The notes under the pieces: model-generated | Told to the model about the DNA's origin: nothing | The model's input: the letters and a program-made list of their open reading frames with translations, nothing else | Database searches by the model: none | Shown here: positions 1 through 46,897 of the stretch, piece after piece | Layout of the letters: each line of letters begins with the position of its first letter | Numbering within the stretch: the stretch's first letter is position 1 | NCBI GenBank assembly: GCA_964620125.1 | Contig: CAZUGQ010000006.1 | Span: forward strand, 6,216 to 70,215 | Reading direction: 5' to 3' | From: an uncultured Hyphomicrobiales bacterium | GTDB lineage: Bacteria > Bacteroidota > Ignavibacteria > Kapaibacteriales > Kapaibacteriaceae | DNA length: 64,000 nt | Program-made: the position numbers and the translations under genes

Positions 1-170
1 CGTGCCCATGTTCACACTTGTCTTGAAGGTACCACCTCCGAATGCCTCATTGATGGTGTAGACAACCTCACCAAGATTGTTCACAAGTTCAATGCGAACG
101 TCTCCTGCCTCGAGGTTAGCAGCTTCAATGTTGAACAGGCCACTCGTTGGGTTCGGGAACACATGAAGCT
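1..170 (-). other. T9SS C-terminal sorting domain (Por secretion tail) of the giant protein, partial; the last ~30 aa lie beyond the window
   Basis: Minus-strand translation contains VFPNPTSG...IELVNNLGEVVYT...FGGGTFKTSVNMGT, the canonical T9SS CTD beta-sandwich motifs. Confidence 0.75.
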
Positions 171-3100
171 CTGGTGCGTGGCCCGCAAACACGACGTCAT
201 TCACATCCGTGAGGGTGACGTCGTATCCATCAGATACCGAGCTACACGTGTTGTCGTCCTGAATCTCAACACGATACGTGCCTGAGGTGTTCACTAGCAA
301 GTAGTGCGCAGTTGCACCAGAAATTGGAGCATACTGACCAGGCATACCGGTTGCACGGTACCACTGGTATCCGCGGGCCACTGCTGAGTTGGCATACAGG
401 GTATCTCCACTGCGAGTTATCGATGGCCGTGCCGGTAGCGGATTAACCACAACGTCGGTTGGAACAGATGCAGCCTCGCAGCTTGCATTGTTGGTTACCA
501 CAACGGTGTAGCTACCTCCGTCAACTACAGTGATCTCACGAGTGGTAGCACCGTTCGACCAGAAGTAGCTGGAATACCCGTCCGGAGCACTGAGTACCAC
601 TGAACCACCATCGCAGAAGGTTGTTGGACCATTCGGAATCACGATTGGGGCTGGTACGGGGCTTACGGTAATGATTACCGTGTCCGATACACCCACACAT
701 CCGTTTGCATCTACAACTTCACAGTAAATGGTGTCCGTTTGCTTCACGAAGATTGAACGACCTGTGCCGTAGTTAATGTTCCGCTCAGAACGCCACGTGT
801 AAGACACATATCCATTCGGAGCACGAACTTCTACACTATCACCTGAACATACGGTGGTGGATCCCACCACAGTAAGTACTGGCGTTGGCTTCGAATTAAC
901 AAATACGTCAACCTCGGTTGAAGTGCCCGTACAGCCATTACCGTCAGCAACCGTTACGGTGTATGAACCAGCTTCGGTTACAACGATTGATTGTGTATTG
1001 GCACCGGTTGACCACAGGTACGTTGCAAATCCTGATGGTGCGGTGAGTGTTACACTGCCACCTTCGCAGAATGTGGTTGGTCCACTAACCGTGATGATTG
1101 GTAGCGAGCTTGGGAACACGTTCACCACAATTGTGTTCGATGTTCCAACGCAGCCATTCTCATCGGTTACCCGAACGAAGTAGCTACCGCCAGTGTGCAC
1201 AACGATACTGCGCGAAGTCTCACCAGTGTTCCATACATAGCTGGCAAAGCCTACCGGAGCAGACAACGTTACGTCGCCACCTTGGCAGAACGTCGTTGGA
1301 CCAGAAGCGGTTATCGTTACCGATGGCAGTTCATTCACAGTCACATTGAGCGAGTTGCGAGCAACACAGCCATACGTGTTGGTTTCTGTAACCGTTACGG
1401 CATGTGTACCCGGTACAGTCCACTCTACCGTAATGTTCGGCGTGCCTTGACCAGAGCGAATGATGTTGCCACCAGATACCACCCACGAGTATGAGTGGCC
1501 TGGCAGACCTGGCGTGCTATACGTATGGATGGTGTTCAAGCATACTGATGTTGGACCAGACACCACCGGATTCGGAAGTGGATTGATCGTTACGTTCAGT
1601 GATGCTGTAACAACACAGCCCCACGTAGAGGTTTGCGTGATCGTTACGGTGCCAGTTGTTGGCGTACTTCCAGCATTCGTCCAACGAACGTTAACGCTTG
1701 TGCTGGTTGATGTTCCAACGATTGAACCGTTGCTCGAAACCGTCCATTGATAGTTGATGAAGCCTTGGGCCGATCCCGTTGCAGGAATGCTGGTCGAGTA
1801 GGTGACCATGTTATCCGTTTGCGGGTTGTCGCCAAGATCCGTTGCACATACAACCGACGGTCCTGTAATCGTTGGAACCGGTGGGTTCGGACGAACAGTG
1901 ATTGACCGTGTGTTGCTGTTGATACAGCTCATGCTTGGCAGAACATCCGTTACCCATTCTGTAACCGAAACCGAACCTGCAATGGTGTTTGGCCACGATG
2001 GGTTCTGCCAGCTAACAGAGATGGTGTTTGTGCCCTGACCACTGATGATCGTGCCGCCAACAACAGTCCAAGTGTAGCTGTTGCCAGTCACGAAAGGTGT
2101 GGTGTACGTTTCAACAGAGTTACCACATGGATTCAGGTTTCCAGTGATGTTTGGCGACGGCGTCGGACGGATATCGAAGGTGTCGCGATCCGTCGTGATA
2201 CAGTCAGAGCCGGGGATGGTTTCCGTGACCGACAGTGTTCCTTGACCAGCAGGGCCCCAGGTTACCTGTACAGTATTCGTGTACTGTCCAGAGACGATCG
2301 TACCGCCCGTTACTGCCCAGACGAAGGTGTTGCCTGGTGTAGCAAAGGTGGTATAGGTATGAGTGCTGAAGTTGCACACGATACCTGGCCGACGTCCGGC
2401 AGGGTTTCCATAACCCGTTGTCGAGGAAATGAACGGCGTTGGGATTTCATTCACCTGTACCTGCATCGACACTGTGGTCGAGCAGCCTCCGGCAATGTTG
2501 GTTTCCGTTACCGTTACGGTATGCAGACCTGGCTGGATCCACTTGATCTCAATAGAGTTCGAGTTTGGATAGCCAACGATTGGTGCAAATGCATTGGTTG
2601 GCGTAATGCTCCAAGCATAGGCACTTCCAACCACAAACGGTGTGAAGTATACGTGATCCTTGTTGATACAGGCCACGTTTGCACCGTTAATGTTCGGAGC
2701 AGGCTTGTAGGTCACAGTTACATTCTGTACGTCAGTGGTTTGGCAATCCGTGCCCGTTGTTGTTTCAACAACAGTGAGCGTTTGATTGCCCAAACTCGTC
2801 CACTTAATCGTGACTGTGTTGCTTGTGCTTGATCCGATGATGTTACCACCCGTGACCGTCCATTGATACGAACTTGTAGCATTGAACGGTGTTGAGTACG
2901 TAATCACGTCGGTTTCACAAGCCTGATCTACCGGTCCGGTTGGCGTGAGACGAGTGATGTTCGTGGTTGAAGGCTTCGGTGAAACAATCACGGACATAGT
3001 TGCTGTGGCTTGACAGTTGCCCGAGGCATTCTTCTCGGTAACGGTCAAGGTTTGCGTACCAGCCGTTGTCCACTTCACCGTGACTTCATTGGATGTAACA

Positions 3101-6100
3101 CCGGATGTGATAATGCCACCCGTGACCGTCCACAGATATGTACTACCTGCGTTGGCCGGTGTTGAGTAGCTCTCCTCTGTATCCGTACATACGTTGGCAT
3201 CACCAGAGATGGAAGGTGCTGGCTGGAACTCAACGGTTACGTTCTTTGTGAGAGTAACCTTACAGTTCGTACCAATGGTCTGAATCTCAACTTCCACCGT
3301 TTGCAGACCCATGGCTGTCCACTGGATCGTTATTGCATTGGTGCCTGCACCGCTAGTAATCGTTCCACCAGTTACCGTCCAGATGTAGGACTGACCTGGA
3401 ATCGACGTTACACTGTATGCTTCAACCGATCCATTGCAAACAGTTGCATCGCCTGCAATTGATGTTTGCACTGGTGTCTGATTAACCAACACACTCAGTG
3501 TGGTGGTCTTGGTGCAGTTTCCAGTTGCGTTGTCTTGCTTGAGTGTTACAGTATGGGTGCCTGCAGTTGTCCACTGGATAGTGGCTGTTGGTGCCACCGT
3601 TCCCGACGTGAACGAACCTCCACCCGAGAGAGACCACAGGTAGCTATGACCAGGTACTGCTGCAACGCTGTACGATGCAATGTCGCCGGTACAAACAACG
3701 TTCGGACCTGCAATAGATGGATTGGGTTGCTCTTCTACGGTTACATCAAGTGTGAGCGTCTTCTCGCAGTTGGTACCGTTCGTGGAGATCTCAACAGTTA
3801 CCACGTTGGTGCCTAGCGCTGTCCACTCCACATTGATTGTGCTCGTTCCAGCGCCGCTTACGATTACGCCACCGGTAACAGTCCAAACGTAGGTCTGACC
3901 TGCAATGTTGGTTACACTGTAGGCTTCCACTGAACCATGGCATACGGTGGCATCACCAGCGATGCTTGTCTGAATCGGTGTTTGACCAACCGATACGCTG
4001 AGTGTGGCAAGAGCAGAGCAATTGCCAGTGCCATTCGTTTGTACTACAGTTACAGTGTGTGTTCCGCCTGTGCTCCATTCAACGGTCATTTCATGAGAGT
4101 TCACACCACTCATGATGGAACCTCCACCGCTGATGGTCCATGCATACGTATGACCTGCAACTGGATTCACACCATACGTTGCAATATCATCTGTACATAC
4201 AACCGCCGGACCAGTGATGGATGGTGCTGGCTGATCTTCAACTGAAACATTCTTGAACAGCTCTGTTTCGCAGTTCGTACCGATGGTACCGATTTCTACA
4301 ACAACAGTCTGGTTGCCGATGGAAGTCCACTGAACGTTGATGCTGCTTGTGCCTGCTCCACTAACAATCGAGCCCCCTGTCACCGTCCACGTATAGGATT
4401 GGCCAGCAACATTGGTCACACTGTATGTTTCCGTGCTGCCATAGCATACGGTTGCATCACCAGTGATCTCGGTTTGTGTTGGAGTCTGACCTACAGTCAC
4501 CAGCAGGCTTGCATTGGCGAAGCAATTGCCAGTTCCATTTGTCTGAACAACATTAACGGTCCATGTACCAGGAGTAGTCCACTCAACCGTTAGGCTGTTG
4601 GATGTGGTTGACGACATGATCGTACCACCACCGCTGATTGACCAGGAGTATGTGTGGCCAGCAACAGCCGTGACGCTGTACGTTGACATGTCGTCCGTAC
4701 AAACGGGTGTTGGACCTGCAATCGTAGGTGCTGGCTGATCTTCGACGTTTACCACTTGTGTAACCGTCTTCGAACAGGTTGTTCCTGCAGTGGTTTCCTT
4801 TAGCGTGATCGTTTGTGCACCAACGGTAGTCCATTCGATGGATACTTGGAAGGTGTTGTTGATTCCGCCAACGAAGTTACCGCCGGTAACATTCCAGAGA
4901 TACGTGTTGCCAACATTGTTCGACGTTCCGTAGGTGATCACCTGGTTAACGCAGGCAATGGCAACACCACCTGTCGGCGAGATCCGAGCGATAGCGGTTG
5001 ACGTTGGTGTCTTTCCTACGGTCACTGTAAGTGTTGCAGTTGCCGTACAGTTACCATTGGTTTCCACAACCTGAACGGTGCGGGTACCTTGCAACGTCCA
5101 CATCACTGTTACTTGATGTGATGTTGTGCCAGACATGATCGTACCACCAGCAGATGGTAGTGACCACAGGTAGGTGCTGCCCGGAACATCAGGTGTAGAG
5201 TAGACGCGAGTGTCTTCGGTACATGGCATTGCATCGCCGGTGATGGCAGGAACTGGCTGATAGGTTACACCAACATTGAGGGTTGATGTAGCCATGCAGG
5301 TTTCAGTTTCATCCTTCTCAACCAGAGTAAGCGTTTGTGTACCAACGTTGGTCCACTGAACGGTTACTTGATTGGTGGTGCCACCACTTACGATCGTACC
5401 ACCAGTTACAGACCATTGATAGATAGCATCCGTGTTGTTCGGCACACTATATACGATGGTGCTGTTGTTGCAAGCCTGGTTAACCGGGCCAGCTGGTGAG
5501 ACTCTGGTAATTGTAACAACCTGTGGTTGATACCTGATTGTAACGCTGATGTTAGTACTTGCCGAACAACCACTGAGTGTGTTCGTTTCTGTTACACCAA
5601 TCGTAGCAGCCAGAGTATTGCCTGGTGTTGGATTGTTGAACAGGATGGTAGCTGCACTTGTGGTACCACCACCAGTAATGGTTCCGTTACCACTGATTGA
5701 CCAAGCATAGGTGTTGCCAGCGATGAACGGTGTGCTGTACGTATGTGAGCTTTCGCCACAAACGTTCAGCGGACCACTGATGGTCGGGGCCGGAGCATTA
5801 GTAATAGTTACATCCTGAGATACCGTAGTTGTGCACTGCGATCCGGTATGCCACTTGTTCAGTGTTACCGTGCCTGTGCCAACAGTATTCCAGGTTACTA
5901 CCACTGTCGAAGCTTCGTCAGTGCCAACAACGGCACCATTCGAAACATTCCACTTGTAGTTGTACGTTGGATTTGGTGCAACTGGATCAGTGTTACCATA
6001 GGTAATTGTCTGACCAAGGCATGCACCACCAACGGCTCCGCCAGCAGGTGCAACACGAGTGATGGTTGGGTTTGGCTTCTCAACAATCGTAACCACCTTG

Positions 6101-9100
6101 GTTACTGTTTCCGTACAGTTCGTGGCAAGAACTGTTTCGGTGAGTTGCAGCGTGAAGGAGGAGCCTCCACCTATGTCGCCAGTCAGCACAGTTGCGGTTG
6201 CGGTATTTGCTCCGCCCGTGATGGTAGCATTGCCACCAGCAAGAACAGTCCACAGATACGTGTTATTCGGAGCGTTGTTAGCCGTGCTGTATGTGTAGAC
6301 GCTGTTGTCGCAAGTCTTGTCGGCACCATTGATTACTGGAACCGGTGTTGGATTTACGACCACGTTGAACGTCGTAACATTCATACATCCGACTGACGAA
6401 ACTTGACGCAGACGAATGAAGGCATTGGGATTCGGCGTATCCAGCCAGTCGATAGAGATGGTGTTCAGACCCACGCCTGACCGCTTGGCCGTATCACCAA
6501 CGATGCCTGCTCCCAGACCTCCGTCGATCGTACCACCAATCACCTGCCAGTTGTAGGTGTCAGACGGGTAGTTGTCTGCGGTGTATACGCGGTTCTGGTC
6601 ACCTTGGCAAACCGTTGTAGGACCATTGATAACCGGAACTGGCAATGGGTAAACAACCACGTCGTGCAACAGCGTTGTGGTGCAACCACCGTGCGAAGGA
6701 GGTAGGGTGATATCGCATTGTACTGTTCCAATGTTGGTACCACCAGTGGTATACCATTCGGCTACAATACCCGGGGTGAACTGTCCGCTGCGAATTGCAC
6801 CACTTACAACACCCGAAGGCATCGTCCACAAATACGTTGTCCCAGCTGGGAACACACATGGTGCTGGACGTTCAACATAGAAGGTATCCAGGTGCTCTTC
6901 GAAACCACCATAGATACAGGACGACGTTGGACCTTGAATATCGGCATCTGCAACAGTCGGTTCGATTGTCACATTATAGAATGCCGTGTCGGTGCAACCC
7001 CATGAGTTGGTGGCAATCATCCGAATGGTTTGTGCTAACGGATTGTAGGTACCATCGCAGTTAAGCAAGTGGATACCCCAGTCAACCACAAACGGATTCA
7101 CCGTACCACTGATCGTTGGGTTCGCAAACGTTGGTGTTGTGCCAGCAGGCGGAACGGTGGTAATCAACCATGAGAAGTACATCGGCGGAGCCGGTGTTAC
7201 CGGATCTGCTGTGTACGTAGCAGTGGATGGTCCACACGAGTTCGTAGGTCCATTAACAACTGCAACTGGCTTCTCATATACCGTTATGTTGGTGGTGCCG
7301 TAGTTAACCGGGCAAGCCGACGTTGGTATCGGTCTGGTATACGTTGCATTCTGAACCAGACGTGCCTCGACTTGCACGTTGTTCACAACGGTGAAGTTCA
7401 CCGGATTCGTAGGCTGGATCTGTGCAACGTTGAACATTGCAGACACCGCACCACCTGTGCCTTGCAGAATCACTTGTGGCGATAGGAAGGAACCGTTTAC
7501 GTTCACTTCGTACTCTACGCCAGCTTCGGTGTTTGCCAGGTTAACGGTTAACATTTCTTCCCAGCAGATTGGATTCGGGAAGAAGGTAACTGTTGGATCG
7601 GCTGGGTCTTCAAAGATGCGAGCCGTTGGGTGGGCCGTCATCGTTGCCGGACAACCACTAGCCGGTGGCAGCAGCGGAGCTGGTGGTATGAAGGCACGTA
7701 CTTCGTACTCGTAGTTGTCTACAGCAAGGAGCGGGCCACCTGTGCCAATTCCTGCCGTAGTGTTGTCCGTAAGCGTGATAGTAGGTGCGATACCCATTTG
7801 AGATACGATGGGTCCTACATAGGCACCTACAACTGGGAAGATCTGACGGCGATACAGCTCGTACATCACGTGTGGTTGCGCTGGCTGTCCTACAGTACCA
7901 ACATCAACCAACACATTGTCGCCTTCGCAAACGAGTGTGGTGGTGATCGTCACTGGGATGTCGTTCGGTGTGTCATATACCTGAATGGTTATGACGTCCG
8001 TTGCAGTACGCAGCCATTCACATGGACCGCTGATATCCGGCGTAAATGTTTGATCCTTAGCCGTGATACGGAACACATGATCTGTAATCGGTGAGGTAGT
8101 AATGGTAAGCACCGACGCAGGAACAGTAATGTTCAGGGCAGCACCTGTACCCGCGACTGGCGTAACACCCGTATTCACCCACGATGTACCATTCCACTCT
8201 TCAACACGGTAGTCTAGCCCAATTTCACTGCTTGAAAGAATTAGGTCTACTGTTTCTCCTTCGCAGATCTTGTTACCCGGTGCTGAAGAAGACGTGGTAA
8301 ACGTCAGTGGCACAGTTGGTATCAGCGGGAGATTAAGTGTTGGTTCGATTGACGTTGCAAAACATGCCGCTGGCGGAGGATTATTCGGGTCACTGGTAAA
8401 CACCAAGTACTTGACCTTACCAGGGGTTGGACCCGTCCAAACAACCTGGCAGCTGGTAGCATTTAGGGCGGCAGTGGTGAACTGACCTACACTAACGTAG
8501 CTGCCTGGTGTTCCAGTGATAATGAAGCCATTGGTTACGTACCACTGATACCAGTGGTTGGCCAGCGGCACAGGTGCAGAGTAGGTGATGATCCGTGTGG
8601 GATCAATTGCCAGCGGGCCAACTACACTAGGATTATCAAAGTACAGAGAATCCACACAAAGCTCATCCTGTGTGGCGTTGGTAATCACTGGTGCAGGTTG
8701 CGGATTCACAGGCTGCGCCACAACCGTGATATCGTAGTGCTGTACGCGCGTACAGCCTGTGATAAGGTCGGTTGCTGTAAGATCTACTGTGTGGGCTCCA
8801 GGAGCACCCCAGTCATTTACCGTGAACGTCGGTGCAACAAAGGCACTTACGGCAGCCGATGTTGCCAAGCTATAGCTGTATAGTCCTGGTAGGTAGTTCG
8901 TGATGTTGTATACCTGTGGATATGCTCCGTCGCAAACAACTTGAGGATTCGGGAAGTCGAGCAGCGGACGCACAGGGCGTGTTTCGACCGTAAACGGTCC
9001 AAAGTTGCCTACGGTAGCACATGATGCAGGTGAAAGGTTGTCGGTAACGGTAATGGTAAGATTGAAGCTTCCACCTGCCAAGATATCTGCCAAGGAAGAG

Positions 9101-12100
9101 TCACCAATTGTCACGTTCCACACTGCAGCAGCGGCGTTCAAGTTGAATGATGTGCTCAACGGAGCAGCACCCGAGTATGCACCAACAGGTGTGAGCTGGA
9201 AGTTCCAGTTACGGGTTACTCCACCACCAGGATATGCTGAAGCATTTCCAGTTATCGCATACGTTCCCCCTACGCAGATTGGAACAGGCACAGTTGGCGC
9301 AAGTACCGTCGGGTCCGGAACAATGTTCACTGACTGAGTGAACGCTACTGCACATCCGCCCACACCAGGATTGGTAACAGTAATGGTCAGATTACCAGAA
9401 GCAACGCCAGGTCCTGGATTGGTGGCTGTAAATGCAACGGATGGAAGATTCAGTGGTGGTGTTAGAGCAATGTTGAGCGGTGTGGTTGTCGACCAGAGGT
9501 ATGTAGCTCCAGGAAGTACTGTTCCAACACCTGGGTTGAAGGTTGCAACTCCACCGTCTCCATTACAAACTGCCGTTGGTACGACCGAAACGGTACCTGT
9601 TGGTTGCGGATTAACCGTGATGTTAAACTCCCGTTCCGTCACGCAGCCAGGCGCTGCTGGGTTGGTTTCGGTAATTCTGATTCTGGCCGAGGTTACCCCG
9701 GCGTTGTACGTAACTCCAAACTGTCCATTAGCAAGATTCAGTGCAACGGAGACGACGCCACCACTCAGGACACTCACACTCCAGTTGTTACCATTTGGCC
9801 ACGGGCCACTAATCTGATAGGTGTGCGGCCCAGTACCGGCACATGGATTTCCTGCAATAGGCGTTACATAACCCGGACCGGAAATTGTTTTCGGTGTAGG
9901 CGACTCAGTTACTGTGACATTCTGAGTAATCGTAACAGCACATCCGGTTGCGATGATGGTTTCAGTTACCGAAACCCAGTTTGCACCAGGCAATGACCAA
10001 CGAACGATAGCATCAAGGTTTGCACCTGCACCGTTCACCAACCAGTTTGAGGTGTTGGTGTTCGTGAATATGCCATTCAGCACCGTGAAATTGTACGAGC
10101 GGCCTGAAACACCAAGAATGCGGTAGGTGTACTCGTACAATGCTCGACCACTTTCTAGTGTTCCACCGATGTATGTACAGCCTTGCGACGGGTTGAGCAA
10201 CCACGTTGGATTCGGAAGTGGATTTACAACAATGTTGTTCAGCGGATTGTGAACTCTGACGCAACCGCCAGAAGTTGTTTCAGTAACGGACACTGAGTAT
10301 GTACCAGGCAACAACCAGTCGATGGTAATGGTGTGGTTGTTTGGAGGAGCAGGAATGGTAGCATTCCAGTTCACACCGGCCGTTCCCGGAGTAATCGACC
10401 AAGTGTACGATGATCCAGGTGTTGCCGCTATGGAATACGTGCGGTTGTCTTGTTCGCACACGGTGCCAGCAGGAGTTTGAACCACTGTGGCTGCTGCCGG
10501 TACACCATTCACCTGGAGAGTATGAACTACCGACGTTGGTCCAGCACATGACCTGTTCGAACCAGGAACTCCAGCAGCACCACCAGTACCGTTTGAAGGC
10601 TGTACCGTGAGAGATGCGGAGTAGTGGCTTGTCGAAGCTGGCCACGCAATCGAAACGGTATTCGTTGGGTGCTGGGTAGTAACCGTAACAGTACCACCAG
10701 ACACAGGGTTACCGTTCATGGTTGTTCCTACCGGTGCACCGGTAAGAACCCAGCGATACAGCGTTGCAGGGGCAGTAGCACCTACACCGGAGGCACCCGC
10801 CTGCGTGTAGATTGCCGTGGTACCAGCGCAGGGGTTACCTGGCTGATTCACTGCTGTGTTTACACCTGGTCCGGTAATTCCTGCTGGTGTTTCAACACCA
10901 GGTGTCCTGTAGAAGGTAGAAGTAATGGTAGCATCCGGGTTGGAAGCACACACGATAGGCACAGAGGTTTGCTCCTCCATGTTAATCGTTACACTCGTTC
11001 CACCTTGCGCCAACAATGCGTTATTGAAGAAAATGGTCGTGTTCTGAGCAGCATTGTTGTTATTTGGAACAAACGCAGTTACTGCCGGGCTAGGCGACGA
11101 CCAGTGGAAGGTGTTCGGTGCATTGCTGTTCGGAACACCTGCAGTGGTGGTTGCATCACCGCATCGGTTAGCACCAAGCGTAATAACCTGCGCTACCGGT
11201 AGTGCAACAACCTGGAAGTTTACTGTGTTCGATGTAACCTGCGATGTTTCACAACCATTAAACGTATAGGTCACAACAGCTGAGTAGCTGTGTGTACCAG
11301 GCGTACGAAAGGCTGGCGGAACTGCGAATGCCGGGGGAATAAATGGATCCACGCCGGGAGTGAAGGTGCCTGCAGTTCCCATTGATGTTGCACCGTCAAA
11401 GTACTCGATGTCAACATCTGCATACGGAGGACCAACAAGAATAGGATCCGACGTGTAGGCCTCGTCATTAATCGCGGCATAGTTCACAAGTGCATTCTGA
11501 TACACTGCGTTACCGGCCGTGCCACACTCATTCTCAAATCCAGCAAACACACCGTAAAAACCTGCACCGGGATTCGGTACATCATCCAAGCGCCATTCGA
11601 TGCGGCTTGGCGTACCGGCATACCCGTCCTCGTAAATGATCAACTGCATGTTGACCACGTTTGCCTGGAATGGGTTCACGAACGGAACATTTTCGTAGGT
11701 GATCACCAGGTAATTGCCATTGGCATCTTCCTGTACTTGCCACCAAATGTTGCCTCCGGCTGCTGGATCCAAATCCACATTACCAAGGATAACGGTCTTG
11801 TTCGGCCCGTTCACGTTTGGAACATTGGCTGGAATAATCCCAGCGTCCACACCATTGAGGAACGTGATGAATCCGTTCGAGGCCACATAGAAGCCATCGT
11901 TGGTAAGATTCAGCAACTCGCCATAGAAGCTGAACTCAAAGTCAGCTCCGCCGGTTTGTTGCGGGTTCTGCTCACCCGAAATCCCATCGTCTCCGAGGGC
12001 AAGGTTGTTTACCGGGCCATTGGCAACGCCACCGGCATTCTGGCCCAGCATACCGCCCGGCCAGAGAAGTGCAGCCGGCGCAGATGGTTGGGGAACGTCC

Positions 12101-12294
12101 TGGCTGGTAATCGATGCAGTGATGTTAAACGCAACACCTTCGCACTGCGGCGATGCCAGCGAGGTCGCAATCGTAATCTGCGACCAAAGACTCGGTGGCG
12201 TGACGGCTCCCAGCATAAGTGCTAGAAGGAACGTCAGCACCACGAACCCTGAACGCCGTTGCGCCCCTAGAGTCGTGGAACCAAAGGATGTCAT
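1..12294 (-). CDS. Giant (>4,100 aa, 3' end beyond window start) T9SS-sorted cell-surface adhesin-like protein. It has a signal peptide, a ~330-aa N-terminal NIDO-like domain, about 40 tandem ~85-aa Ig-like beta-sandwich domains each with a conserved Cys pair, and a C-terminal T9SS sorting domain.
   Basis: Reverse-strand frame is open from the ATG at 12294..12292 (preceded by GGAGGA at a 5-nt spacer) to the window edge. The plus-strand track shows only short antisense fragments. The N-terminal translation MTSFGSTTLGAQRRSGFVVLTFLLALMLGAVTPPSLWSQ is a signal peptide. The recurrent motif is ...C...Y.W...GG.I.SG.GT..I.V.W...G...V.V.E....GC... The minus-strand translation of 1..180 reads ...HAPELHVFPNPTSGLFNIEAANLEAGDVRIELVNNLGEVVYTINEAFGGGTFKTSVNMGT, a typical Por_Secre_tail. 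Confidence 0.85.
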   Translation of the reverse strand, partial: MTSFGSTTLGAQRRSGFVVLTFLLALMLGAVTPPSLWSQITIATSLASPQCEGVAFNITASITSQDVPQPSAPAALLWPGGMLGQNAGGVANGPVNNLALGDDGISGEQNPQQTGGADFEFSFYGELLNLTNDGFYVASNGFITFLNGVDAGIIPANVPNVNGPNKTVILGNVDLDPAAGGNIWWQVQEDANGNYLVITYENVPFVNPFQANVVNMQLIIYEDGYAGTPSRIEWRLDDVPNPGAGFYGVFAGFENECGTAGNAVYQNALVNYAAINDEAYTSDPILVGPPYADVDIEYFDGATSMGTAGTFTPGVDPFIPPAFAVPPAFRTPGTHSYSAVVTYTFNGCETSQVTSNTVNFQVVALPVAQVITLGANRCGDATTTAGVPNSNAPNTFHWSSPSPAVTAFVPNNNNAAQNTTIFFNNALLAQGGTSVTINMEEQTSVPIVCASNPDATITSTFYRTPGVETPAGITGPGVNTAVNQPGNPCAGTTAIYTQAGASGVGATAPATLYRWVLTGAPVGTTMNGNPVSGGTVTVTTQHPTNTVSIAWPASTSHYSASLTVQPSNGTGGAAGVPGSNRSCAGPTSVVHTLQVNGVPAAATVVQTPAGTVCEQDNRTYSIAATPGSSYTWSITPGTAGVNWNATIPAPPNNHTITIDWLLPGTYSVSVTETTSGGCVRVHNPLNNIVVNPLPNPTWLLNPSQGCTYIGGTLESGRALYEYTYRILGVSGRSYNFTVLNGIFTNTNTSNWLVNGAGANLDAIVRWSLPGANWVSVTETIIATGCAVTITQNVTVTESPTPKTISGPGYVTPIAGNPCAGTGPHTYQISGPWPNGNNWSVSVLSGGVVSVALNLANGQFGVTYNAGVTSARIRITETNPAAPGCVTEREFNITVNPQPTGTVSVVPTAVCNGDGGVATFNPGVGTVLPGATYLWSTTTPLNIALTPPLNLPSVAFTATNPGPGVASGNLTITVTNPGVGGCAVAFTQSVNIVPDPTVLAPTVPVPICVGGTYAITGNASAYPGGGVTRNWNFQLTPVGAYSGAAPLSTSFNLNAAAAVWNVTIGDSSLADILAGGSFNLTITVTDNLSPASCATVGNFGPFTVETRPVRPLLDFPNPQVVCDGAYPQVYNITNYLPGLYSYSLATSAAVSAFVAPTFTVNDWGAPGAHTVDLTATDLITGCTRVQHYDITVVAQPVNPQPAPVITNATQDELCVDSLYFDNPSVVGPLAIDPTRIITYSAPVPLANHWYQWYVTNGFIITGTPGSYVSVGQFTTAALNATSCQVVWTGPTPGKVKYLVFTSDPNNPPPAACFATSIEPTLNLPLIPTVPLTFTTSSSAPGNKICEGETVDLILSSSEIGLDYRVEEWNGTSWVNTGVTPVAGTGAALNITVPASVLTITTSPITDHVFRITAKDQTFTPDISGPCEWLRTATDVITIQVYDTPNDIPVTITTTLVCEGDNVLVDVGTVGQPAQPHVMYELYRRQIFPVVGAYVGPIVSQMGIAPTITLTDNTTAGIGTGGPLLAVDNYEYEVRAFIPPAPLLPPASGCPATMTAHPTARIFEDPADPTVTFFPNPICWEEMLTVNLANTEAGVEYEVNVNGSFLSPQVILQGTGGAVSAMFNVAQIQPTNPVNFTVVNNVQVEARLVQNATYTRPIPTSACPVNYGTTNITVYEKPVAVVNGPTNSCGPSTATYTADPVTPAPPMYFSWLITTVPPAGTTPTFANPTISGTVNPFVVDWGIHLLNCDGTYNPLAQTIRMIATNSWGCTDTAFYNVTIEPTVADADIQGPTSSCIYGGFEEHLDTFYVERPAPCVFPAGTTYLWTMPSGVVSGAIRSGQFTPGIVAEWYTTGGTNIGTVQCDITLPPSHGGCTTTLLHDVVVYPLPVPVINGPTTVCQGDQNRVYTADNYPSDTYNWQVIGGTIDGGLGAGIVGDTAKRSGVGLNTISIDWLDTPNPNAFIRLRQVSSVGCMNVTTFNVVVNPTPVPVINGADKTCDNSVYTYSTANNAPNNTYLWTVLAGGNATITGGANTATATVLTGDIGGGSSFTLQLTETVLATNCTETVTKVVTIVEKPNPTITRVAPAGGAVGGACLGQTITYGNTDPVAPNPTYNYKWNVSNGAVVGTDEASTVVVTWNTVGTGTVTLNKWHTGSQCTTTVSQDVTITNAPAPTISGPLNVCGESSHTYSTPFIAGNTYAWSISGNGTITGGGTTSAATILFNNPTPGNTLAATIGVTETNTLSGCSASTNISVTIRYQPQVVTITRVSPAGPVNQACNNSTIVYSVPNNTDAIYQWSVTGGTIVSGGTTNQVTVQWTNVGTQTLTLVEKDETETCMATSTLNVGVTYQPVPAITGDAMPCTEDTRVYSTPDVPGSTYLWSLPSAGGTIMSGTTSHQVTVMWTLQGTRTVQVVETNGNCTATATLTVTVGKTPTSTAIARISPTGGVAIACVNQVITYGTSNNVGNTYLWNVTGGNFVGGINNTFQVSIEWTTVGAQTITLKETTAGTTCSKTVTQVVNVEDQPAPTIAGPTPVCTDDMSTYSVTAVAGHTYSWSISGGGTIMSSTTSNSLTVEWTTPGTWTVNVVQTNGTGNCFANASLLVTVGQTPTQTEITGDATVCYGSTETYSVTNVAGQSYTWTVTGGSIVSGAGTSSINVQWTSIGNQTVVVEIGTIGTNCETELFKNVSVEDQPAPSITGPAVVCTDDIATYGVNPVAGHTYAWTISGGGSIMSGVNSHEMTVEWSTGGTHTVTVVQTNGTGNCSALATLSVSVGQTPIQTSIAGDATVCHGSVEAYSVTNIAGQTYVWTVTGGVIVSGAGTSTINVEWTALGTNVVTVEISTNGTNCEKTLTLDVTVEEQPNPSIAGPNVVCTGDIASYSVAAVPGHSYLWSLSGGGSFTSGTVAPTATIQWTTAGTHTVTLKQDNATGNCTKTTTLSVLVNQTPVQTSIAGDATVCNGSVEAYSVTSIPGQSYIWTVTGGTITSGAGTNAITIQWTAMGLQTVEVEIQTIGTNCKVTLTKNVTVEFQPAPSISGDANVCTDTEESYSTPANAGSTYLWTVTGGIITSGVTSNEVTVKWTTAGTQTLTVTEKNASGNCQATATMSVIVSPKPSTTNITRLTPTGPVDQACETDVITYSTPFNATSSYQWTVTGGNIIGSSTSNTVTIKWTSLGNQTLTVVETTTGTDCQTTDVQNVTVTYKPAPNINGANVACINKDHVYFTPFVVGSAYAWSITPTNAFAPIVGYPNSNSIEIKWIQPGLHTVTVTETNIAGGCSTTVSMQVQVNEIPTPFISSTTGYGNPAGRRPGIVCNFSTHTYTTFATPGNTFVWAVTGGTIVSGQYTNTVQVTWGPAGQGTLSVTETIPGSDCITTDRDTFDIRPTPSPNITGNLNPCGNSVETYTTPFVTGNSYTWTVVGGTIISGQGTNTISVSWQNPSWPNTIAGSVSVTEWVTDVLPSMSCINSNTRSITVRPNPPVPTITGPSVVCATDLGDNPQTDNMVTYSTSIPATGSAQGFINYQWTVSSNGSIVGTSTSTSVNVRWTNAGSTPTTGTVTITQTSTWGCVVTASLNVTINPLPNPVVSGPTSVCLNTIHTYSTPGLPGHSYSWVVSGGNIIRSGQGTPNITVEWTVPGTHAVTVTETNTYGCVARNSLNVTVNELPSVTITASGPTTFCQGGDVTLSAPVGFASYVWNTGETSRSIVVHTGGSYFVRVTDENGCVGTSNTIVVNVFPSSLPIITVSGPTTFCEGGSVTLTAPSGFATYLWSTGANTQSIVVTEAGSYTVTVADGNGCTGTSTEVDVFVNSKPTPVLTVVGSTTVCSGDSVEVRAPNGYVSYTWRSERNINYGTGRSIFVKQTDTIYCEVVDANGCVGVSDTVIITVSPVPAPIVIPNGPTTFCDGGSVVLSAPDGYSSYFWSNGATTREITVVDGGSYTVVVTNNASCEAASVPTDVVVNPLPARPSITRSGDTLYANSAVARGYQWYRATGMPGQYAPISGATAHYLLVNTSGTYRVEIQDDNTCSSVSDGYDVTLTDVNDVVFAGHAPELHVFPNPTSGLFNIEAANLEAGDVRIELVNNLGEVVYTINEAFGGGTFKTSVNMGT
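2950..5300 (-). repeat. DNA-level periodic array (~510-nt period) of alternating A/B domain-pair repeats inside the giant gene. Copies are diverged at roughly 70-80% identity.
   Basis: Recurrent stretches such as ccaccgctgatggtccatgcatacgtatgacctgcaac / ccaccgctgattgaccaggagtatgtgtggccagcaac and gttaccgtccagatgtaggactgacctgg / gtaacagtccaaacgtaggtctgacctgc recur at ~510-nt spacing. The encoded protein motifs are AGQ.Y.W.VTGG.I.SGAGT..I.V.WT (type A) and AGH.Y.W.ISGGG.IMS (type B). Confidence 0.6.
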
Positions 12295-42435: not shown

Positions 42436-42473
42436 GGCTTTTCGCAGTTTTCGGACCCGTTATCACGAGCACC

Positions 42474-44183
42474 ATGGAAGAAGAACAGAATTTCATCGTC
42501 ACGGCGCGCAAATGGCGTCCGCTCAGATTCACCGACGTTGTTGGGCAGGAGCATGTTACCACAACGCTCCGCAACGCCATCCGCACAGGTCGCGTGCACC
42601 ATGCCTACCTGTTCACCGGACCACGTGGTGTAGGCAAGACTACGTGCGCACGTATCCTGGCTCGAGCCTTGAATTGTTTGTCCCCGCAGGATGCTGAACC
42701 GTGTAATGCCTGTGTGGCGTGTACAGAGGTTTTAGACAGCCGAAGTGTAGACGTTATCGAGATTGACGGTGCCTCCAACAACAGTGTTGATGATGTTCGG
42801 AAACTACGCGACAATGCCAAATATTCCCCGGTTTCGGGTCGGTACAAGCTGTACATCATCGACGAAGTGCACATGCTCTCAACGGCAGCCTTTAATGCCT
42901 TGCTGAAGACGTTAGAAGAGCCCCCCCCTCATCTGGTGTTCGTATTTGCCACAACTGAAATCCACAAGGTACCTGCCACCATACTCAGTCGTTGCCAGCG
43001 GTTCGACTTTCGCAGGATGGAGATTGCCAGCATTGTTAGCCATCTCTCCACCATTGCCAAGGCCGAAGGCATCGCTGTGGAAGAAGAGGCGCTTGTGGCC
43101 ATTGCACGCAAGGCTGACGGCTCGATGCGTGATTCGCAGAGCATCTTTGACCAGGTGGTTGCATTCTGCGGCAACACAATCGGCATGGCCGATGTTGCCG
43201 ATGCGTTACATCTGATTGATACCGACTTCTTTTTTGACATTAGCATTGCCGCACGTGAAAACAATGTGGCGCGCATGTTTGATCTCTCCCGCGCCGTTGT
43301 TTCCCGGGGATATGATTTGCAAGAATGCCTCGTTGGCTTACTTGAACACTACCGCAACCTTCTCACGGTCGTTGCCACGGGCTCTGCCGATCTTATTGAA
43401 GGGGCTGAAGTAACACGCGCACGGTATGTGGAAGAAGCAGCCAAATACAGTCAGACAGATTTGGTGCGACTCATGGCAGCCGTCAGCCAGGGGGAATCCA
43501 TGCTGCGGCAGAACCCACCGCAGCCACGTGTTCGATTTGAGTTTACGCTGGTAAAACTTGCCACTATGGACAGCAGCGTTGACCTTACCGAGTTGCTTGC
43601 CCGATTGGGAGCTGCACCAACAGCACATCCCGTTGGTGGCGTGCCGGTTGCGATGAAGGTTGGTCCGCGTACTACATCGGCAGCTATGCAGGCAGGTAAG
43701 CCAAAGCCCCCTAACGTAGCACAGACTGTTAGCACATCGCTTCAGCCGATTTCGAATTTCAAGCAGAAGATCAAGTCGCGCACGGAGCCTGTGAACAGCT
43801 TGAGTTCGTTAGAGATTGCGCAGCGGTGGACGGAAGTGCTTGCTGCATTACCAGAGCATCTGGCCTTTGTGCGTTCGTCGGTAAAACAAGGTGTGCTGGG
43901 AGTAGACTTCTCCGAAGTAGGTCTGCTTCTCCGTCCAACAGCAGAGATCATCGCCCATCGGCTTGCAGACAAGCTGCCGCAGTTCAAGGAGCATCTTGCC
44001 AGTGTTTATGGCACTCCAGTGGGTGTTCAGGTCGTAGCAGTTCCGCAGGTACAGCAGCCTGTGAATCAGGAGAATCTGATACCAGGAAGCGAAGGCGCAC
44101 CACTTTCAGCATCTGGATATACGCCGCTACCCATCGAGGAAGCGTTGATACGCCTGTTCAGTGCCAGACGTGTTGGAGCTTGA
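42474..44183 (+). CDS. dnaX: DNA polymerase III subunit gamma/tau
   Basis: The start chosen at MEEEQNFIVTARKWRP... matches the conserved DnaX N-terminus. Walker A GPRGVGKTT, the Zn module C..C..C and a long tau C-terminal extension are present. Confidence 0.9.
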   Translation: MEEEQNFIVTARKWRPLRFTDVVGQEHVTTTLRNAIRTGRVHHAYLFTGPRGVGKTTCARILARALNCLSPQDAEPCNACVACTEVLDSRSVDVIEIDGASNNSVDDVRKLRDNAKYSPVSGRYKLYIIDEVHMLSTAAFNALLKTLEEPPPHLVFVFATTEIHKVPATILSRCQRFDFRRMEIASIVSHLSTIAKAEGIAVEEEALVAIARKADGSMRDSQSIFDQVVAFCGNTIGMADVADALHLIDTDFFFDISIAARENNVARMFDLSRAVVSRGYDLQECLVGLLEHYRNLLTVVATGSADLIEGAEVTRARYVEEAAKYSQTDLVRLMAAVSQGESMLRQNPPQPRVRFEFTLVKLATMDSSVDLTELLARLGAAPTAHPVGGVPVAMKVGPRTTSAAMQAGKPKPPNVAQTVSTSLQPISNFKQKIKSRTEPVNSLSSLEIAQRWTEVLAALPEHLAFVRSSVKQGVLGVDFSEVGLLLRPTAEIIAHRLADKLPQFKEHLASVYGTPVGVQVVAVPQVQQPVNQENLIPGSEGAPLSASGYTPLPIEEALIRLFSARRVGA

Positions 44184-44226
44184 GCCGTAGGTTTGTGCAT
44201 GTTTCCGGATTGTTGCAAGGTGCTAT

Positions 44227-44700
44227 ATGGCGCTTGAAGAAGGAGTGCGGGCACCATCCTTTACCGCACCAGCCGATGGTGGACGCACGCTAACACTCAA
44301 AGATCTTCGCGGGTCGTGGGTGCTTTTGTACTTCTATCCCGAAGATGATACACCAACATGCACGGCGCAGGCATGCACATTCCGCGATGGGATGGAGCAG
44401 CTTACCCAGCTTGGCATCACGGTTGTAGGTGTAAGTCCAGACCATCCATCGGCTCACGATGCTTTCAAGGCCAAATACAACCTGAACTTCAGCTTGGTTG
44501 CCGATCCCAAACTCAAGATCATGCATGCGTATGATGTATGGAAACTCAAGAAGCTGTATGGTAACGAGCACATGGGAGTGGTTCGCACCAGCTACCTTAT
44601 TGATCCAAAGGGTATCATCAAACGAGTGTGGACCAATGTGCGCCATGCACGCCACCTGCAGCAGATCAGGCAAGCCATGGAGCAGCTCGGTGCCGCATGA
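44227..44700 (+). CDS. bcp: Thioredoxin-dependent peroxiredoxin Bcp
   Basis: YFYPEDDTPTCTAQAC peroxidatic Cys motif, 157 aa. Confidence 0.85.
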   Translation: MALEEGVRAPSFTAPADGGRTLTLKDLRGSWVLLYFYPEDDTPTCTAQACTFRDGMEQLTQLGITVVGVSPDHPSAHDAFKAKYNLNFSLVADPKLKIMHAYDVWKLKKLYGNEHMGVVRTSYLIDPKGIIKRVWTNVRHARHLQQIRQAMEQLGAA

Positions 44701-46262
44701 TTGATTCCCACGCACACATAGATACCAAACCGTTTGACTCTGACCGACCACGTATGCTGCAGAGAGCCTGGGAGGCTGGACTGCAGGCTGTTATCGTGCC
44801 AGACATCGAACCTGCCCGACGAGCACACTTGATCGATGTAGTAAACGATGACGCTCGATTGTACCGTGGCATTGGTATTCACCCTCACCACATAGCCGAT
44901 CAACCACTGTCCGAACTGGACAGAATCGAAGAGGGTTCAGTCGATTCGAAGGTAGTTGCCATCGGAGAGATTGGTCTGGATTATTACTACGACTTTGCGC
45001 CACGCGACACGCAACTTTTCTGGTTTCGCAAGCAGATTGGAATCGCAAAACGAACTGGATTACCGATCATCGTGCACAATCGTGATGCCGATGATGATGT
45101 GCTTCAGGTGCTCACGGAAGAACAGGATGGAACTTTGCGTGGCGTGTTACATTGTTTCTCCAGTGGAATCGAAGTACTTGAACGGGCACTGGAACTTGGA
45201 TTTCATGTTTCGTTCACAGGCAATATCACCTTCAAGAAATCGGTTTTGTCGTCTGTTGTAAGCGCCGTACCAGCGGACCGCTTCATGCTCGAAACCGATT
45301 CACCCTACATCACGCCGGAACCACACCGCGGCACACGCAACGAACCAGCTCACGTGGCACTCGTTGCAGAGAAGATTGCCGAGATACGAGGCACCACTAT
45401 GAACGTCATAGCAGAGATTACCACGCGAACAGCTCGATCCTTCTTTGGATTGTTTTTAATGCTCCTCGCCATAACTAGCATGGCTGTAGCGCAGCCTACA
45501 CCACCCGTGGATGAGGACTATCCCGATGATCGAGATTGGGAAGTAGCACTAGACAACTATTATGCGGATAGCATTGCTTATGAAAAGTGGATCAAACCCC
45601 GCAAGCTTGGCATAGGAGTAACTGTGGGGTCACTAACACCTGTTGAGATTCAGCAACTCCTGCAAACGTATGACTACAGGGCTACCGGAAGCGCTACCGA
45701 CCCTTCACGGTGGAGTTTTTGGCCACGTGACGAAGGCCCGTCGCGCTCAGAGTCATTCTCAGGTCTCGTGGCCTATGGCGGCACAGTTACCTATGGTTTG
45801 TTTACGTCTCTCGTGCTAGAGGGCACGTTTCTGTATTCAGAGAACACAACACCAGCCTTGGAATACGGTCTCGACCCGATTACGTACACGGTTGGAGAAC
45901 TTACAGCATTGTATTCGTTGAACCCGTATAGCCGGGTAAACTTCCTTCCTCATGGCGGTTTGGTGTACACCAGCATTGATGACGGTACAACCAATAGAAC
46001 AAAGTTTGGCGTGAACTTCGGCGTTGGCATTGGAGCCAACATTGACACGCCTGTTGGTTTGTTCTATCCAATGTTCAACGTGCGATTCAACTTCCTGATT
46101 GGAACAGACCAGGATAGGATCGTGAGGCGATACACGGATCCCGAGACCAACCAGGAGTATGTAAACAGTGCCGACCCCAGCATCACATCCAGGGACCTGG
46201 CCGATGTAAACACCTTGCATTCGATTCTACGGTTCACGCTTCTGTACTACATCCCTTTCTAA
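44697..46262 (+). CDS. TatD-family metal-dependent hydrolase/DNase (~255 aa) that continues in-frame, without a stop, into a signal-peptide-like hydrophobic segment and a ~270-aa outer-membrane beta-barrel-like domain ending in ...LLYYIPF
   Basis: The start overlaps the bcp stop (ATGA). TatD motifs are DSHAHID, EIGLDYYY and ...AEITTRTARSFFGLF, where TatD proteins normally terminate. The next segment is LFLMLLAITSMAVAQP, followed by alternating-hydrophobic beta-strand patterns and a C-terminal aromatic residue. Confidence 0.6.
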   Translation: MIDSHAHIDTKPFDSDRPRMLQRAWEAGLQAVIVPDIEPARRAHLIDVVNDDARLYRGIGIHPHHIADQPLSELDRIEEGSVDSKVVAIGEIGLDYYYDFAPRDTQLFWFRKQIGIAKRTGLPIIVHNRDADDDVLQVLTEEQDGTLRGVLHCFSSGIEVLERALELGFHVSFTGNITFKKSVLSSVVSAVPADRFMLETDSPYITPEPHRGTRNEPAHVALVAEKIAEIRGTTMNVIAEITTRTARSFFGLFLMLLAITSMAVAQPTPPVDEDYPDDRDWEVALDNYYADSIAYEKWIKPRKLGIGVTVGSLTPVEIQQLLQTYDYRATGSATDPSRWSFWPRDEGPSRSESFSGLVAYGGTVTYGLFTSLVLEGTFLYSENTTPALEYGLDPITYTVGELTALYSLNPYSRVNFLPHGGLVYTSIDDGTTNRTKFGVNFGVGIGANIDTPVGLFYPMFNVRFNFLIGTDQDRIVRRYTDPETNQEYVNSADPSITSRDLADVNTLHSILRFTLLYYIPF

Positions 46263-46270
46263 GCTTCATC

Positions 46271-46897
46271 ATGGTCACCATCCTAAGCGGGGCAGGCGTC
46301 GGCCACGAACTGTCCATCATCCGCAGCAAGGAATCGGACGTCGCCACATTTCGATCAGCTATCTACCGTATAGGATTGCACCTTGCCGTAACAACTGCTC
46401 AGCACTTACCGGGAGTATCGACTGTGGTTCACACACCTCTCGCACCCGCAACTGTTACCCGCATTGATGGTTCTGTAGTCCTTGTTCCTGTTTTGCGTGC
46501 AGGTTTGGGATTGCTGAGTGCCTTCATGGAGGTGATACCCACAGCCATCGTAGGTTTCGAGGGCCTTCGGCGCAACGAAGCCACACTCCAGCCCGAGGAA
46601 TACTACCGCAACATCCCTTCGGTAGACGAACAGACCAGCTACGTTATCCTCGACCCGATGCTGGCCACAGGGGGTAGCTTAAGTGCAACGATCTCGCGGC
46701 TGCAGGATCAGCCTCATCGAACCATTATTGCCTCCTGCATCATCGCCGCGCCCGAAGGCTTGCAGCGTGTGCAGGAAAAACATCCCAGTGTGCACGTTAT
46801 CGTTGCCGCAGTAGATGATGGACTTAACGATCACGGCTTCATCGTGCCGGGACTCGGTGATGCTGGCGACAGAATGTACGGAACCTTCCAGAACTGA
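46271..46897 (+). CDS. upp: Uracil phosphoribosyltransferase
   Basis: UPRTase PRPP-binding motif (YVILDPMLATGGS) and 208 aa. Confidence 0.85.
   Translation: MVTILSGAGVGHELSIIRSKESDVATFRSAIYRIGLHLAVTTAQHLPGVSTVVHTPLAPATVTRIDGSVVLVPVLRAGLGLLSAFMEVIPTAIVGFEGLRRNEATLQPEEYYRNIPSVDEQTSYVILDPMLATGGSLSATISRLQDQPHRTIIASCIIAAPEGLQRVQEKHPSVHVIVAAVDDGLNDHGFIVPGLGDAGDRMYGTFQN

Follow-up and report, generated by a model that had tools for sequence, protein, structure and literature searches.

A TatD-type nuclease and a predicted outer-membrane beta-barrel share one reading frame, joined by a putative internal signal peptide, in the Kapabacteria/Ignavibacteria lineage

Results

A TatD domain and a predicted outer-membrane barrel are encoded in a single frame

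A stretch of 64,000 nucleotides (hereafter the window; GenBank assembly GCA_964620125.1, contig CAZUGQ010000006.1, positions 6,216 to 70,215 of the forward strand), deposited as an uncultured Hyphomicrobiales bacterium and placed by GTDB in the Kapaibacteriaceae (Bacteroidota; Ignavibacteria; Kapaibacteriales), contains one open reading frame (ORF) in which a TatD/YcfH-type nuclease and a small outer-membrane-type beta-barrel appear to be joined via the barrel's own Sec signal peptide, now internal. Taking the evidence below together, we consider it rather probable that this ORF gives two products for two compartments, a full-length precursor and an internally initiated outer-membrane protein precursor (pre-OMP), and that the fusion is ancient and selectively maintained. 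The features of the gene are the following, in window coordinates.

44697..46262, + strand: single ORF of TatD, internal signal peptide and beta-barrel, 521 aa plus stop, with no in-frame stop
44697..45452, + strand: TatD/YcfH-type metal-dependent hydrolase domain, aa 1-252 (PF01026, TIGR00010)
45388..45391, + strand: Shine-Dalgarno (SD)-like core GAGG, 7 nt 5′ of the internal ATG
45399..45401, + strand: candidate internal in-frame start, Met235, from which a pre-OMP bearing a 31-aa signal peptide would result
45426..45491, + strand: predicted internal Sec-type signal peptide, with n-region R244/R247, h-region F249-M262 and c-region A263-V264-A265
45491..45492, + strand: predicted signal peptidase I site AVA/QP (the slash marks cleavage), between aa 265 and 266
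45492..45602, + strand: conserved acidic N-terminal segment of the predicted mature protein, ~37 residues, QP..P.EDDYE.D.DYE.ALENY..DS.AW.K..KPR
45603..46259, + strand: small outer-membrane-type beta-barrel, 8-10 predicted strands
46230..46259, + strand: C-terminal strand RFTLLYYIPF, candidate beta-signal for the beta-barrel assembly machinery (BAM), ending in Phe

The first-pass annotation of this DNA had observed that the TatD domain reaches its normal C-terminal motif with no stop behind it, and the ORF was confirmed from 44697 to 46262 just as it had proposed. Pfam TatD_DNase PF01026 covered aa 2-251 over its complete profile (1-253/253; E 1.7e-73; 247.6 bits, cutoff 27), and TIGR00010 scored above its cutoff (239 bits vs 206). 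The metal ligands H5, H7, E91 and D201, that is, the N-terminal HxH, the Glu of GEIGLD and the Asp of ETDSP, were invariant in 44/44 orthologues, the VHNRD and LHCFS motifs were found as well, and AlphaFold2 (AF2) modelled this half as a confident TIM-barrel. None of the three E. coli equivalog cutoffs was reached (YcfH NF008075, 160.8 vs 438; YjjV NF008522, 139.8 vs 481; TatD NF007745, 130.8 vs 395). By its sequence, the N-terminal half is thus a complete, bona fide member of the TatD/YcfH family that has every metal-binding motif, although it is no equivalog of the E. coli proteins. QatD of the Qat anti-phage system was considered and rejected, with NF041926 at 83.9 bits vs 230 and with dnaX, bcp and upp but no Qat genes as neighbours. 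Since the protein begins MIDSHAHID, directly with the HxH metal site, the TatD half lacks an export signal at its N-terminus. The TatD proteins known so far are soluble, have ~255-265 aa and end soon after ...LFGL, whereas the window protein runs on from ...TTRTARSFFGL into the hydrophobic stretch TARSFFGLFLMLLAITSMAVA, followed by QP at the predicted cleavage site, and then through 256 more residues to ...LLYYIPF.

Those C-terminal 256 aa were predicted as an all-beta barrel with outer-membrane barrels as the best structural matches, and they end in Phe, in agreement with the earlier proposal of an outer-membrane beta-barrel type. The C-terminal pattern SIPR[LF]T.L.[FY]P.F was conserved; the last residue was F or W in 71 of the 97 complete members, and most of the others carried a short tail beyond the aromatic residue. 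Judged by sequence rules and homology, a Sec signal peptide and its signal peptidase I site lie ahead of the mature domain, as in a small outer-membrane protein (OMP), though here the signal peptide is internal. In structure prediction, the C-terminal half has the closed antiparallel beta-barrel fold of the OmpA/OmpW class. The nearest known small barrels are the OmpA N-domain, OmpW, OprF-N, NspA, PagL and Legionella porin III, together with Pfam family OMP_b-brl (PF13505), but the similarity in sequence was marginal: PF13505 gave 19.7-20 bits vs a gathering score of 28.7, nine of 28 members matched it at E<0.1, all below threshold, and no PDB sequence match was obtained with the barrel profile. 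The window barrel also differs from these small barrels in its own conserved acidic N-terminal segment, for which AF2 predicted an amphipathic helix at mature residues 15-31 with moderate per-residue confidence (pLDDT); in the Ignavibacteria-type subfamily, a low-complexity acidic stretch takes the place of the acidic motif. A further difference is that the family is tiny, with 58 representatives among 1.84 billion, and nearly always fused behind TatD.

The fusion is conserved over deep divergence

The exact 521-aa product of the window is already one gene call in a public collection. An initial single-sequence search with the C-terminal half returned only two relatives, both cut by contig ends and therefore undecisive, and deeper searches were performed: a profile search of 5.8 billion proteins gave 23 relatives, and 58 came from 1.84 billion cluster representatives searched exhaustively with HMMER. 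Every database relative of at least 465 aa contained a complete TatD (query 1-251) followed from about residue 252 by an 11-23-aa hydrophobic run, and barrel identity fell to ~25% among these database relatives. At the nucleotide level, pattern scans of genome and metagenome collections yielded 50 loci, mostly labelled Candidatus Kapaibacterium or Ignavibacteria. The TatD and C-terminal matches shared one frame, uninterrupted by a stop, in 46/46 loci with enough upstream DNA, from distinct metagenome-assembled genomes (MAGs) and metagenomes, which goes far past what chance would produce; six other loci ran off a contig end with insufficient upstream DNA. Stop-to-stop ORFs of the fused loci spanned 478-674 codons, and identity to the window was 51-70% in TatD and 29-61% in the barrel. 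Relatives that carry a name are annotated as nothing more than "TatD family hydrolase", "DNase" or "YcfH", and literature searches found no paper describing a TatD-OMP fusion. These comparisons support the view that the single TatD-barrel frame is an ancient, conserved architecture of the Kapabacteria/Ignavibacteria lineage. The nuclease/OMP chimera suggested by the first-pass annotation is thus real and conserved.

Several seeming standalone barrels were discarded. Most short representatives (215-347 aa) proved to be truncated gene calls starting inside TatD. The 302-aa protein P0003, from locus L053, is not an ancestral split either, its locus being 99% identical to the fused locus L027 save for a frame-shifting 13-bp deletion. 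This deletion (L053:5980-6010 vs L027:5921-5950) comprises AAAACTTGCGGAG, with CGGA repeats at its flanks; it takes out the SD-like GGAG and shifts the TatD frame, so that the locus is called as a truncated TatD and a 302-aa barrel from the internal ATG, and it could be a real variant or an assembly error. The contigs of five loci (L003, L010, L015, L018 and L032) are titled as Bradyrhizobiaceae, Didemnitutus, Patescibacteria or Chitinophaga pinensis MAGs, which are probably binning or labelling errors.

The junction has the layout of a Sec signal peptide

Junction statistics were compiled from 44 non-redundant orthologues. In these, the C-terminal TatD helix (TT.TA[RK]..F.L) enters a 14-22-aa uncharged hydrophobic run of mean Kyte-Doolittle ~2.2, which is preceded by R/K, ends in [ATSVLG]-x-A/Q-P and is followed by an acidic stretch. 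Ala occupied position -1 in 43/44 and Gln position +1 in 44/44, QP was present in 42/44, and small or aliphatic residues stood at -3. As read from its sequence, the junction thus has the n-h-c layout expected for Sec signal peptides, including a site for signal peptidase I, the cleavage prediction being based on sequence rules and on homology to standalone N-terminal signal peptides (see below), and the first-pass description of the stretch as signal-like was upheld. In the full-length AF2 model, a low-confidence continuous helix ran through residues 235-263, and TatD and barrel showed no confident packing (predicted TM-score (pTM) 0.47).

Gln at +1 corresponds to the "Q-rule" described for signal peptidase I substrates of Bacteroidetes, for which Ignavibacterium album has a Q-value of 77% (PMC5837995). 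About ten clear N-terminal signal peptides were found elsewhere in the window, and nine of them end A/Q (or S/Q, T/Q), which indicates that the window organism obeys this Bacteroidetes-type rule. The ORFs carrying them start at the following positions.

12294, - strand: ORF start, Q-rule signal peptide
29075, - strand: ORF start, Q-rule signal peptide
32403, - strand: ORF start, Q-rule signal peptide
35966, - strand: ORF start, Q-rule signal peptide
42435, - strand: ORF start, Q-rule signal peptide
53880, - strand: ORF start, Q-rule signal peptide
58008, + strand: ORF start, Q-rule signal peptide
59955, + strand: ORF start, Q-rule signal peptide
61901, + strand: ORF start, Q-rule signal peptide

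The junction shares the A/Q motif with the Q-rule substrates, but those are N-terminal signal peptides (PMC5837995), whereas the motif here lies 265 residues into the protein. The order of elements, an internal hydrophobic segment with positive charge on its N-side and a signal peptidase I motif on its C-side, is that of an internal cleavable signal peptide.

For comparison, the FbcH cytochrome b/c1 precursor of Bradyrhizobium japonicum reportedly contains an internal signal peptide that is cut by signal peptidase. The likeness is that one ORF with an internal Sec-type signal peptide would be separated by cleavage into two mature proteins, cleavage being predicted in the present case. FbcH is said to join two subunits of one membrane complex, whereas the window ORF joins a cytoplasmic soluble-type enzyme to an outer-membrane-type protein with no known functional link.

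An SD-like core and an in-frame ATG are constrained at the end of the TatD region

An in-frame ATG was found 28-38 codons before the cleavage site in 42/44 sequences. Among 27 diverged genes, 24 carried an in-frame (GGAG or GAGG)-N6-10-ATG at residues 233-242, 28-33 codons before the cleavage site, and in these 24/27 genes it was essentially the sole in-frame instance in ~500 codons per gene, with five others in total. In the Kapabacteria-type group, a conserved Ala-Glu four codons before the ATG was written GCG-GAG in 16/19, which makes GGAG 9 nt upstream of the ATG, while gene-wide GCG accounted for 21% of Ala codons and GAG for 53% of Glu codons. Ala228-Glu229 as GCG-GAG headed the 90 adjacent conserved residue pairs in codon constraint (0.84 vs 0.55 for the next), and for single columns Ala228 ranked 1st of 83 four-fold and Glu229 2nd of 76 two-fold columns. 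The AT-rich Ignavibacteria-type subfamily reaches the same arrangement with different codons: GAGG(T) stood exactly 8 nt before an in-frame ATG at residue 241/242 in 6/6 loci, and GAG, only 26% of Glu codons overall in this subfamily, was nevertheless used in 6/6 at the SD-like site. By synonymous resampling, 2.2 of 21 and 1.6 of 6 genes were expected to carry the core, whereas 18/21 and 6/6 did so (P<0.0005 and 0.001, respectively, relatedness of the genes being uncorrected).

The core and the ATG also shift together. In the window, the ATG is two codons later, Ala228 is GCC, and GAGG is supplied by another codon pair, CGA-GGC; in L059, the ATG is shifted to residue 234 and GAGG is shifted along; in L003, AAGGA lies 6 nt upstream of the internal ATG; and in L008 and L036 both elements are gone. 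These comparative data argue for an internal start, as the first-pass annotation had raised, but at ATG 45399 (Met235) behind GAGG and not around 45455 as it had suggested. TTG 45450 and ATG 45459, the starts available near the latter point, were rejected: both fall within the h-region, so that the remaining signal would be 11-14 aa long and lack an n-region, and neither has an SD-like core or a conserved position. A Met in the h-region, 10-14 residues before the cleavage site and with no SD-like core upstream, was present in about half of the orthologues (Met255, 45459-45461, in the window); it may be no more than a hydrophobic residue, or may be left over from an earlier start.

The arrangement resembles in-frame internal starts of E. 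coli, where arcB, rpnE and infB have SD-like cores and synonymous conservation and the C-terminal product of rpnE corresponds to ypaA, a gene in its own right (Meydan et al., bioRxiv 10.1101/520783). Common to both are an SD-like core before an in-frame internal AUG, synonymous conservation, and a C-terminal product that is elsewhere an independent gene. The E. coli cases with altered localisation (speA, bamA, ivy and yghG) lose a signal sequence, whereas the internal start proposed here would expose one; moreover, the host lineage here is SD-poor, and the internal start is deduced from sequence.

Standalone relatives point to a probable origin from adjacent genes

Only two true standalone barrel genes were identified, P0073 (locus L055) and P0046 (locus L054), and a search with P0073 for further unfused versions returned only P0073 itself and one fragment. 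Among the orthologous loci that could be inspected for separate genes, 46/46 were fused, and the separate state was met in the distant relative L055. P0046 has no tatD upstream. P0073 lies directly 3′ of a separate tatD ending ...CKLFGLEC*, from which it is parted by two TGA codons in frame and a spacer of 30 nt. P0073 and P0046 both begin with an ordinary N-terminal signal peptide (e.g. MKNRIFLLLLSIFIFSPLLG, followed by QPP at the predicted cleavage site) that lined up in register with the fused proteins' internal segment, and this segment is therefore homologous to a true N-terminal signal peptide. The SD-like core before the ATG was absent in both standalone barrel genes. Because L055 has tatD and barrel apart by two in-frame stops, an ancient origin from two adjacent genes is plausible; judged from these sequences, a neighbouring tatD-omp pair is the most plausible source of the fusion, and it is possible that L055 is instead a product of fission.

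At L055:2996-5717, dprA (for DNA-processing protein A) comes first, then a tatD called at 279 aa that includes an N-terminal extension, then the barrel gene. L055 is the only unfused relative with context, and in it the tatD-barrel adjacency is kept beside dprA, a natural-transformation gene.

Genomic neighbourhood

In the window, ATG 44697 overlaps the stop of the upstream bcp/AhpC-TSA peroxiredoxin gene (44227..44700) as ATGA, and upp (uracil phosphoribosyltransferase) begins 8 nt past the ORF stop. The order dnaX, bcp, tatD::barrel was kept in both deeply diverged subfamilies (window 42417-46897; L053, L057, L058, L059 and L060), and the context of tatD::barrel is a housekeeping one (dnaX-bcp-tatD). 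The gene 3′ of tatD::barrel differed between loci, being upp, Nramp or an M23 peptidase on the opposite strand, and a divergent S8 peptidase bearing a Por_Secre_tail of the type IX secretion system was often seen on the opposite strand upstream of dnaX. Elsewhere in the window, positions 1..12294 (- strand) hold a very large ORF of ~4098 codons from its candidate start at 12294, with an N-terminal signal peptide; this start was the only one of 14 inspected window starts with a well-placed canonical GGAGG.

Discussion

A model for two products from one frame

Ribosomes starting at ATG 44697 must yield the full 521-aa precursor, since no stop exists. As aa 249-262 emerge, they would insert into the inner membrane via Sec with the N-terminus inside, an orientation that fits the Arg/Lys residues before and the strongly acidic sequence after the hydrophobic segment. 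Bitopic proteins with large N-terminal cytoplasmic domains provide a model for such Sec engagement, which would leave TatD in the cytoplasm. The C-terminal part would then be translocated and cut by signal peptidase I at AVA/QP; this cleavage is predicted because the h-region is short and the A-x-A/Q site is typical of the lineage. The freed barrel protein would have an N-terminal Gln, probably cyclised, and BAM would assemble it into the outer membrane via its C-terminal ...YYIPF strand, while TatD would stay cytoplasmic with the signal peptide left as a C-terminal membrane tail. Initiation at ATG 45399, behind GAGG at 45388-45391, would yield the pre-barrel alone with a 28-33-aa signal peptide (range of the family), whose n-region is the last TatD helix. 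Both routes would give an identical mature barrel protein, and the internal start would uncouple barrel from TatD output, so that the cell could make more barrel than nuclease. In this model, no orthologue has regained a tatD stop because the start lies in frame inside tatD and a downstream stop would truncate the barrel gene.

Several observations weigh against the internal start as part of this model. L008 and L036 lack both the ATG and the core, and L035 has the ATG without a core, so internal initiation is neither universal nor essential. An 11-codon sliding scan of synonymous variation was flat at the junction, the signal being limited to two or three codons and seen at single-codon resolution. 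The lineage is SD-poor, with a well-placed core at one of 14 well-defined window starts and with SD cores in 17% of loci at the start of tatD and in 5% at that of upp. For the related Bacteroidia, it is reported that ribosomes do not see SD sequences apart from special cases like rpsU (PMC7797042, PMC13000453), and no statement on Ignavibacteria was found in PMC7797042. The conserved GGAG/GAGG may accordingly be a specialised signal or have another role, and Met235 may be there in part for the structure of the TatD helix.

Alternative explanations

The SD-poor lineage and the SD-blind ribosomes reported for the related Bacteroidia favour a scheme in which only the full-length protein is made, inserted by Sec through its internal signal peptide and cut by signal peptidase I, giving membrane-tailed TatD and barrel 1:1; the core and the Met would then have some other role, e.g. 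in pausing, in the mRNA or in protein structure. L008 and L036, which keep the fusion and AxA/QP without an internal ATG or core, show that the fused route can be enough by itself, and the reported cleavage of the FbcH precursor at its internal signal peptide is a precedent. This scheme offers, though, no good alternative reason for the constraint on core and ATG, which is the strongest synonymous constraint in the gene, recurs in both deeply diverged subfamilies though the codons differ, and shifts as one; we therefore regard it as unlikely, if deserving attention. Cleavage itself might also fail to occur, so that the segment is a permanent signal anchor in a bitopic protein with TatD tethered on the cytoplasmic side and the barrel in the periplasm or outer membrane, perhaps with the nuclease coupled to a pore. 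The continuous AF2 helix through 235-263 would agree with this, and the conserved fusion and tatD-barrel adjacency, with dprA directly upstream of tatD in L055, could mean physical cooperation. Against it, the uncharged run is short (mostly 14-18 aa including the FFGL of TatD) and ends in a near-invariant small-x-Ala/Gln motif identical to that of the lineage's cleaved signal peptides, the segment shares ancestry with the cleavable signal peptides at the N-termini of standalone relatives, the ~37 residues between the membrane segment and the first barrel strand are short for spanning the periplasm, and the low pTM came with no confident interdomain packing. A permanent anchor is therefore quite improbable in our judgement.

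The first-pass annotation had also allowed for two genes merged by a sequencing error or a recent loss of the tatD stop. Indels do occur, as the gene call split by the 13-bp deletion in L053 illustrates, and L055, a distant relative, has two separate genes. An assembly artefact or an accident in one genome is nevertheless hardly conceivable given the single frame in every testable locus of independent assemblies and in all long database relatives, the public 521-aa gene call, and the conservation of both halves without frameshifts over deep divergence. There is, finally, a slim chance that the fusion reflects a physical or functional partnership, in which TatD is held at the inner membrane by the signal segment, cleaved or not, with the barrel as its outer-membrane partner, e.g. 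in nucleic-acid uptake, export or turnover, and in which the SD-dependent start is a rare specialised use of SD in an SD-independent lineage. The unfused tatD-barrel adjacency with dprA directly upstream in L055 is compatible with such a partnership and is no demonstration of it.

Implications

Gene fusion, internal signal peptide and in-frame nested start are each of a known kind, and what is unusual here is their combination. Because public records say only TatD/YcfH, the small OMP family of 58 cluster representatives is invisible in them, and the localisation of these TatD proteins would be mispredicted. If one ORF with two products is the correct reading, the family would be a clade-wide natural case of one bacterial frame serving two compartments, with a signal peptide working 250 residues into the polypeptide and an n-region that doubles as the last helix of an enzyme, and it would serve as a test case for the in vivo handling of internal signal peptides by Sec, the signal recognition particle (SRP) and signal peptidase. 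It would also show that an in-frame nested start can lock a fusion, no stop codon being able to evolve, and it bears on whether SD-like elements function in Bacteroidota-related, largely SD-independent lineages.

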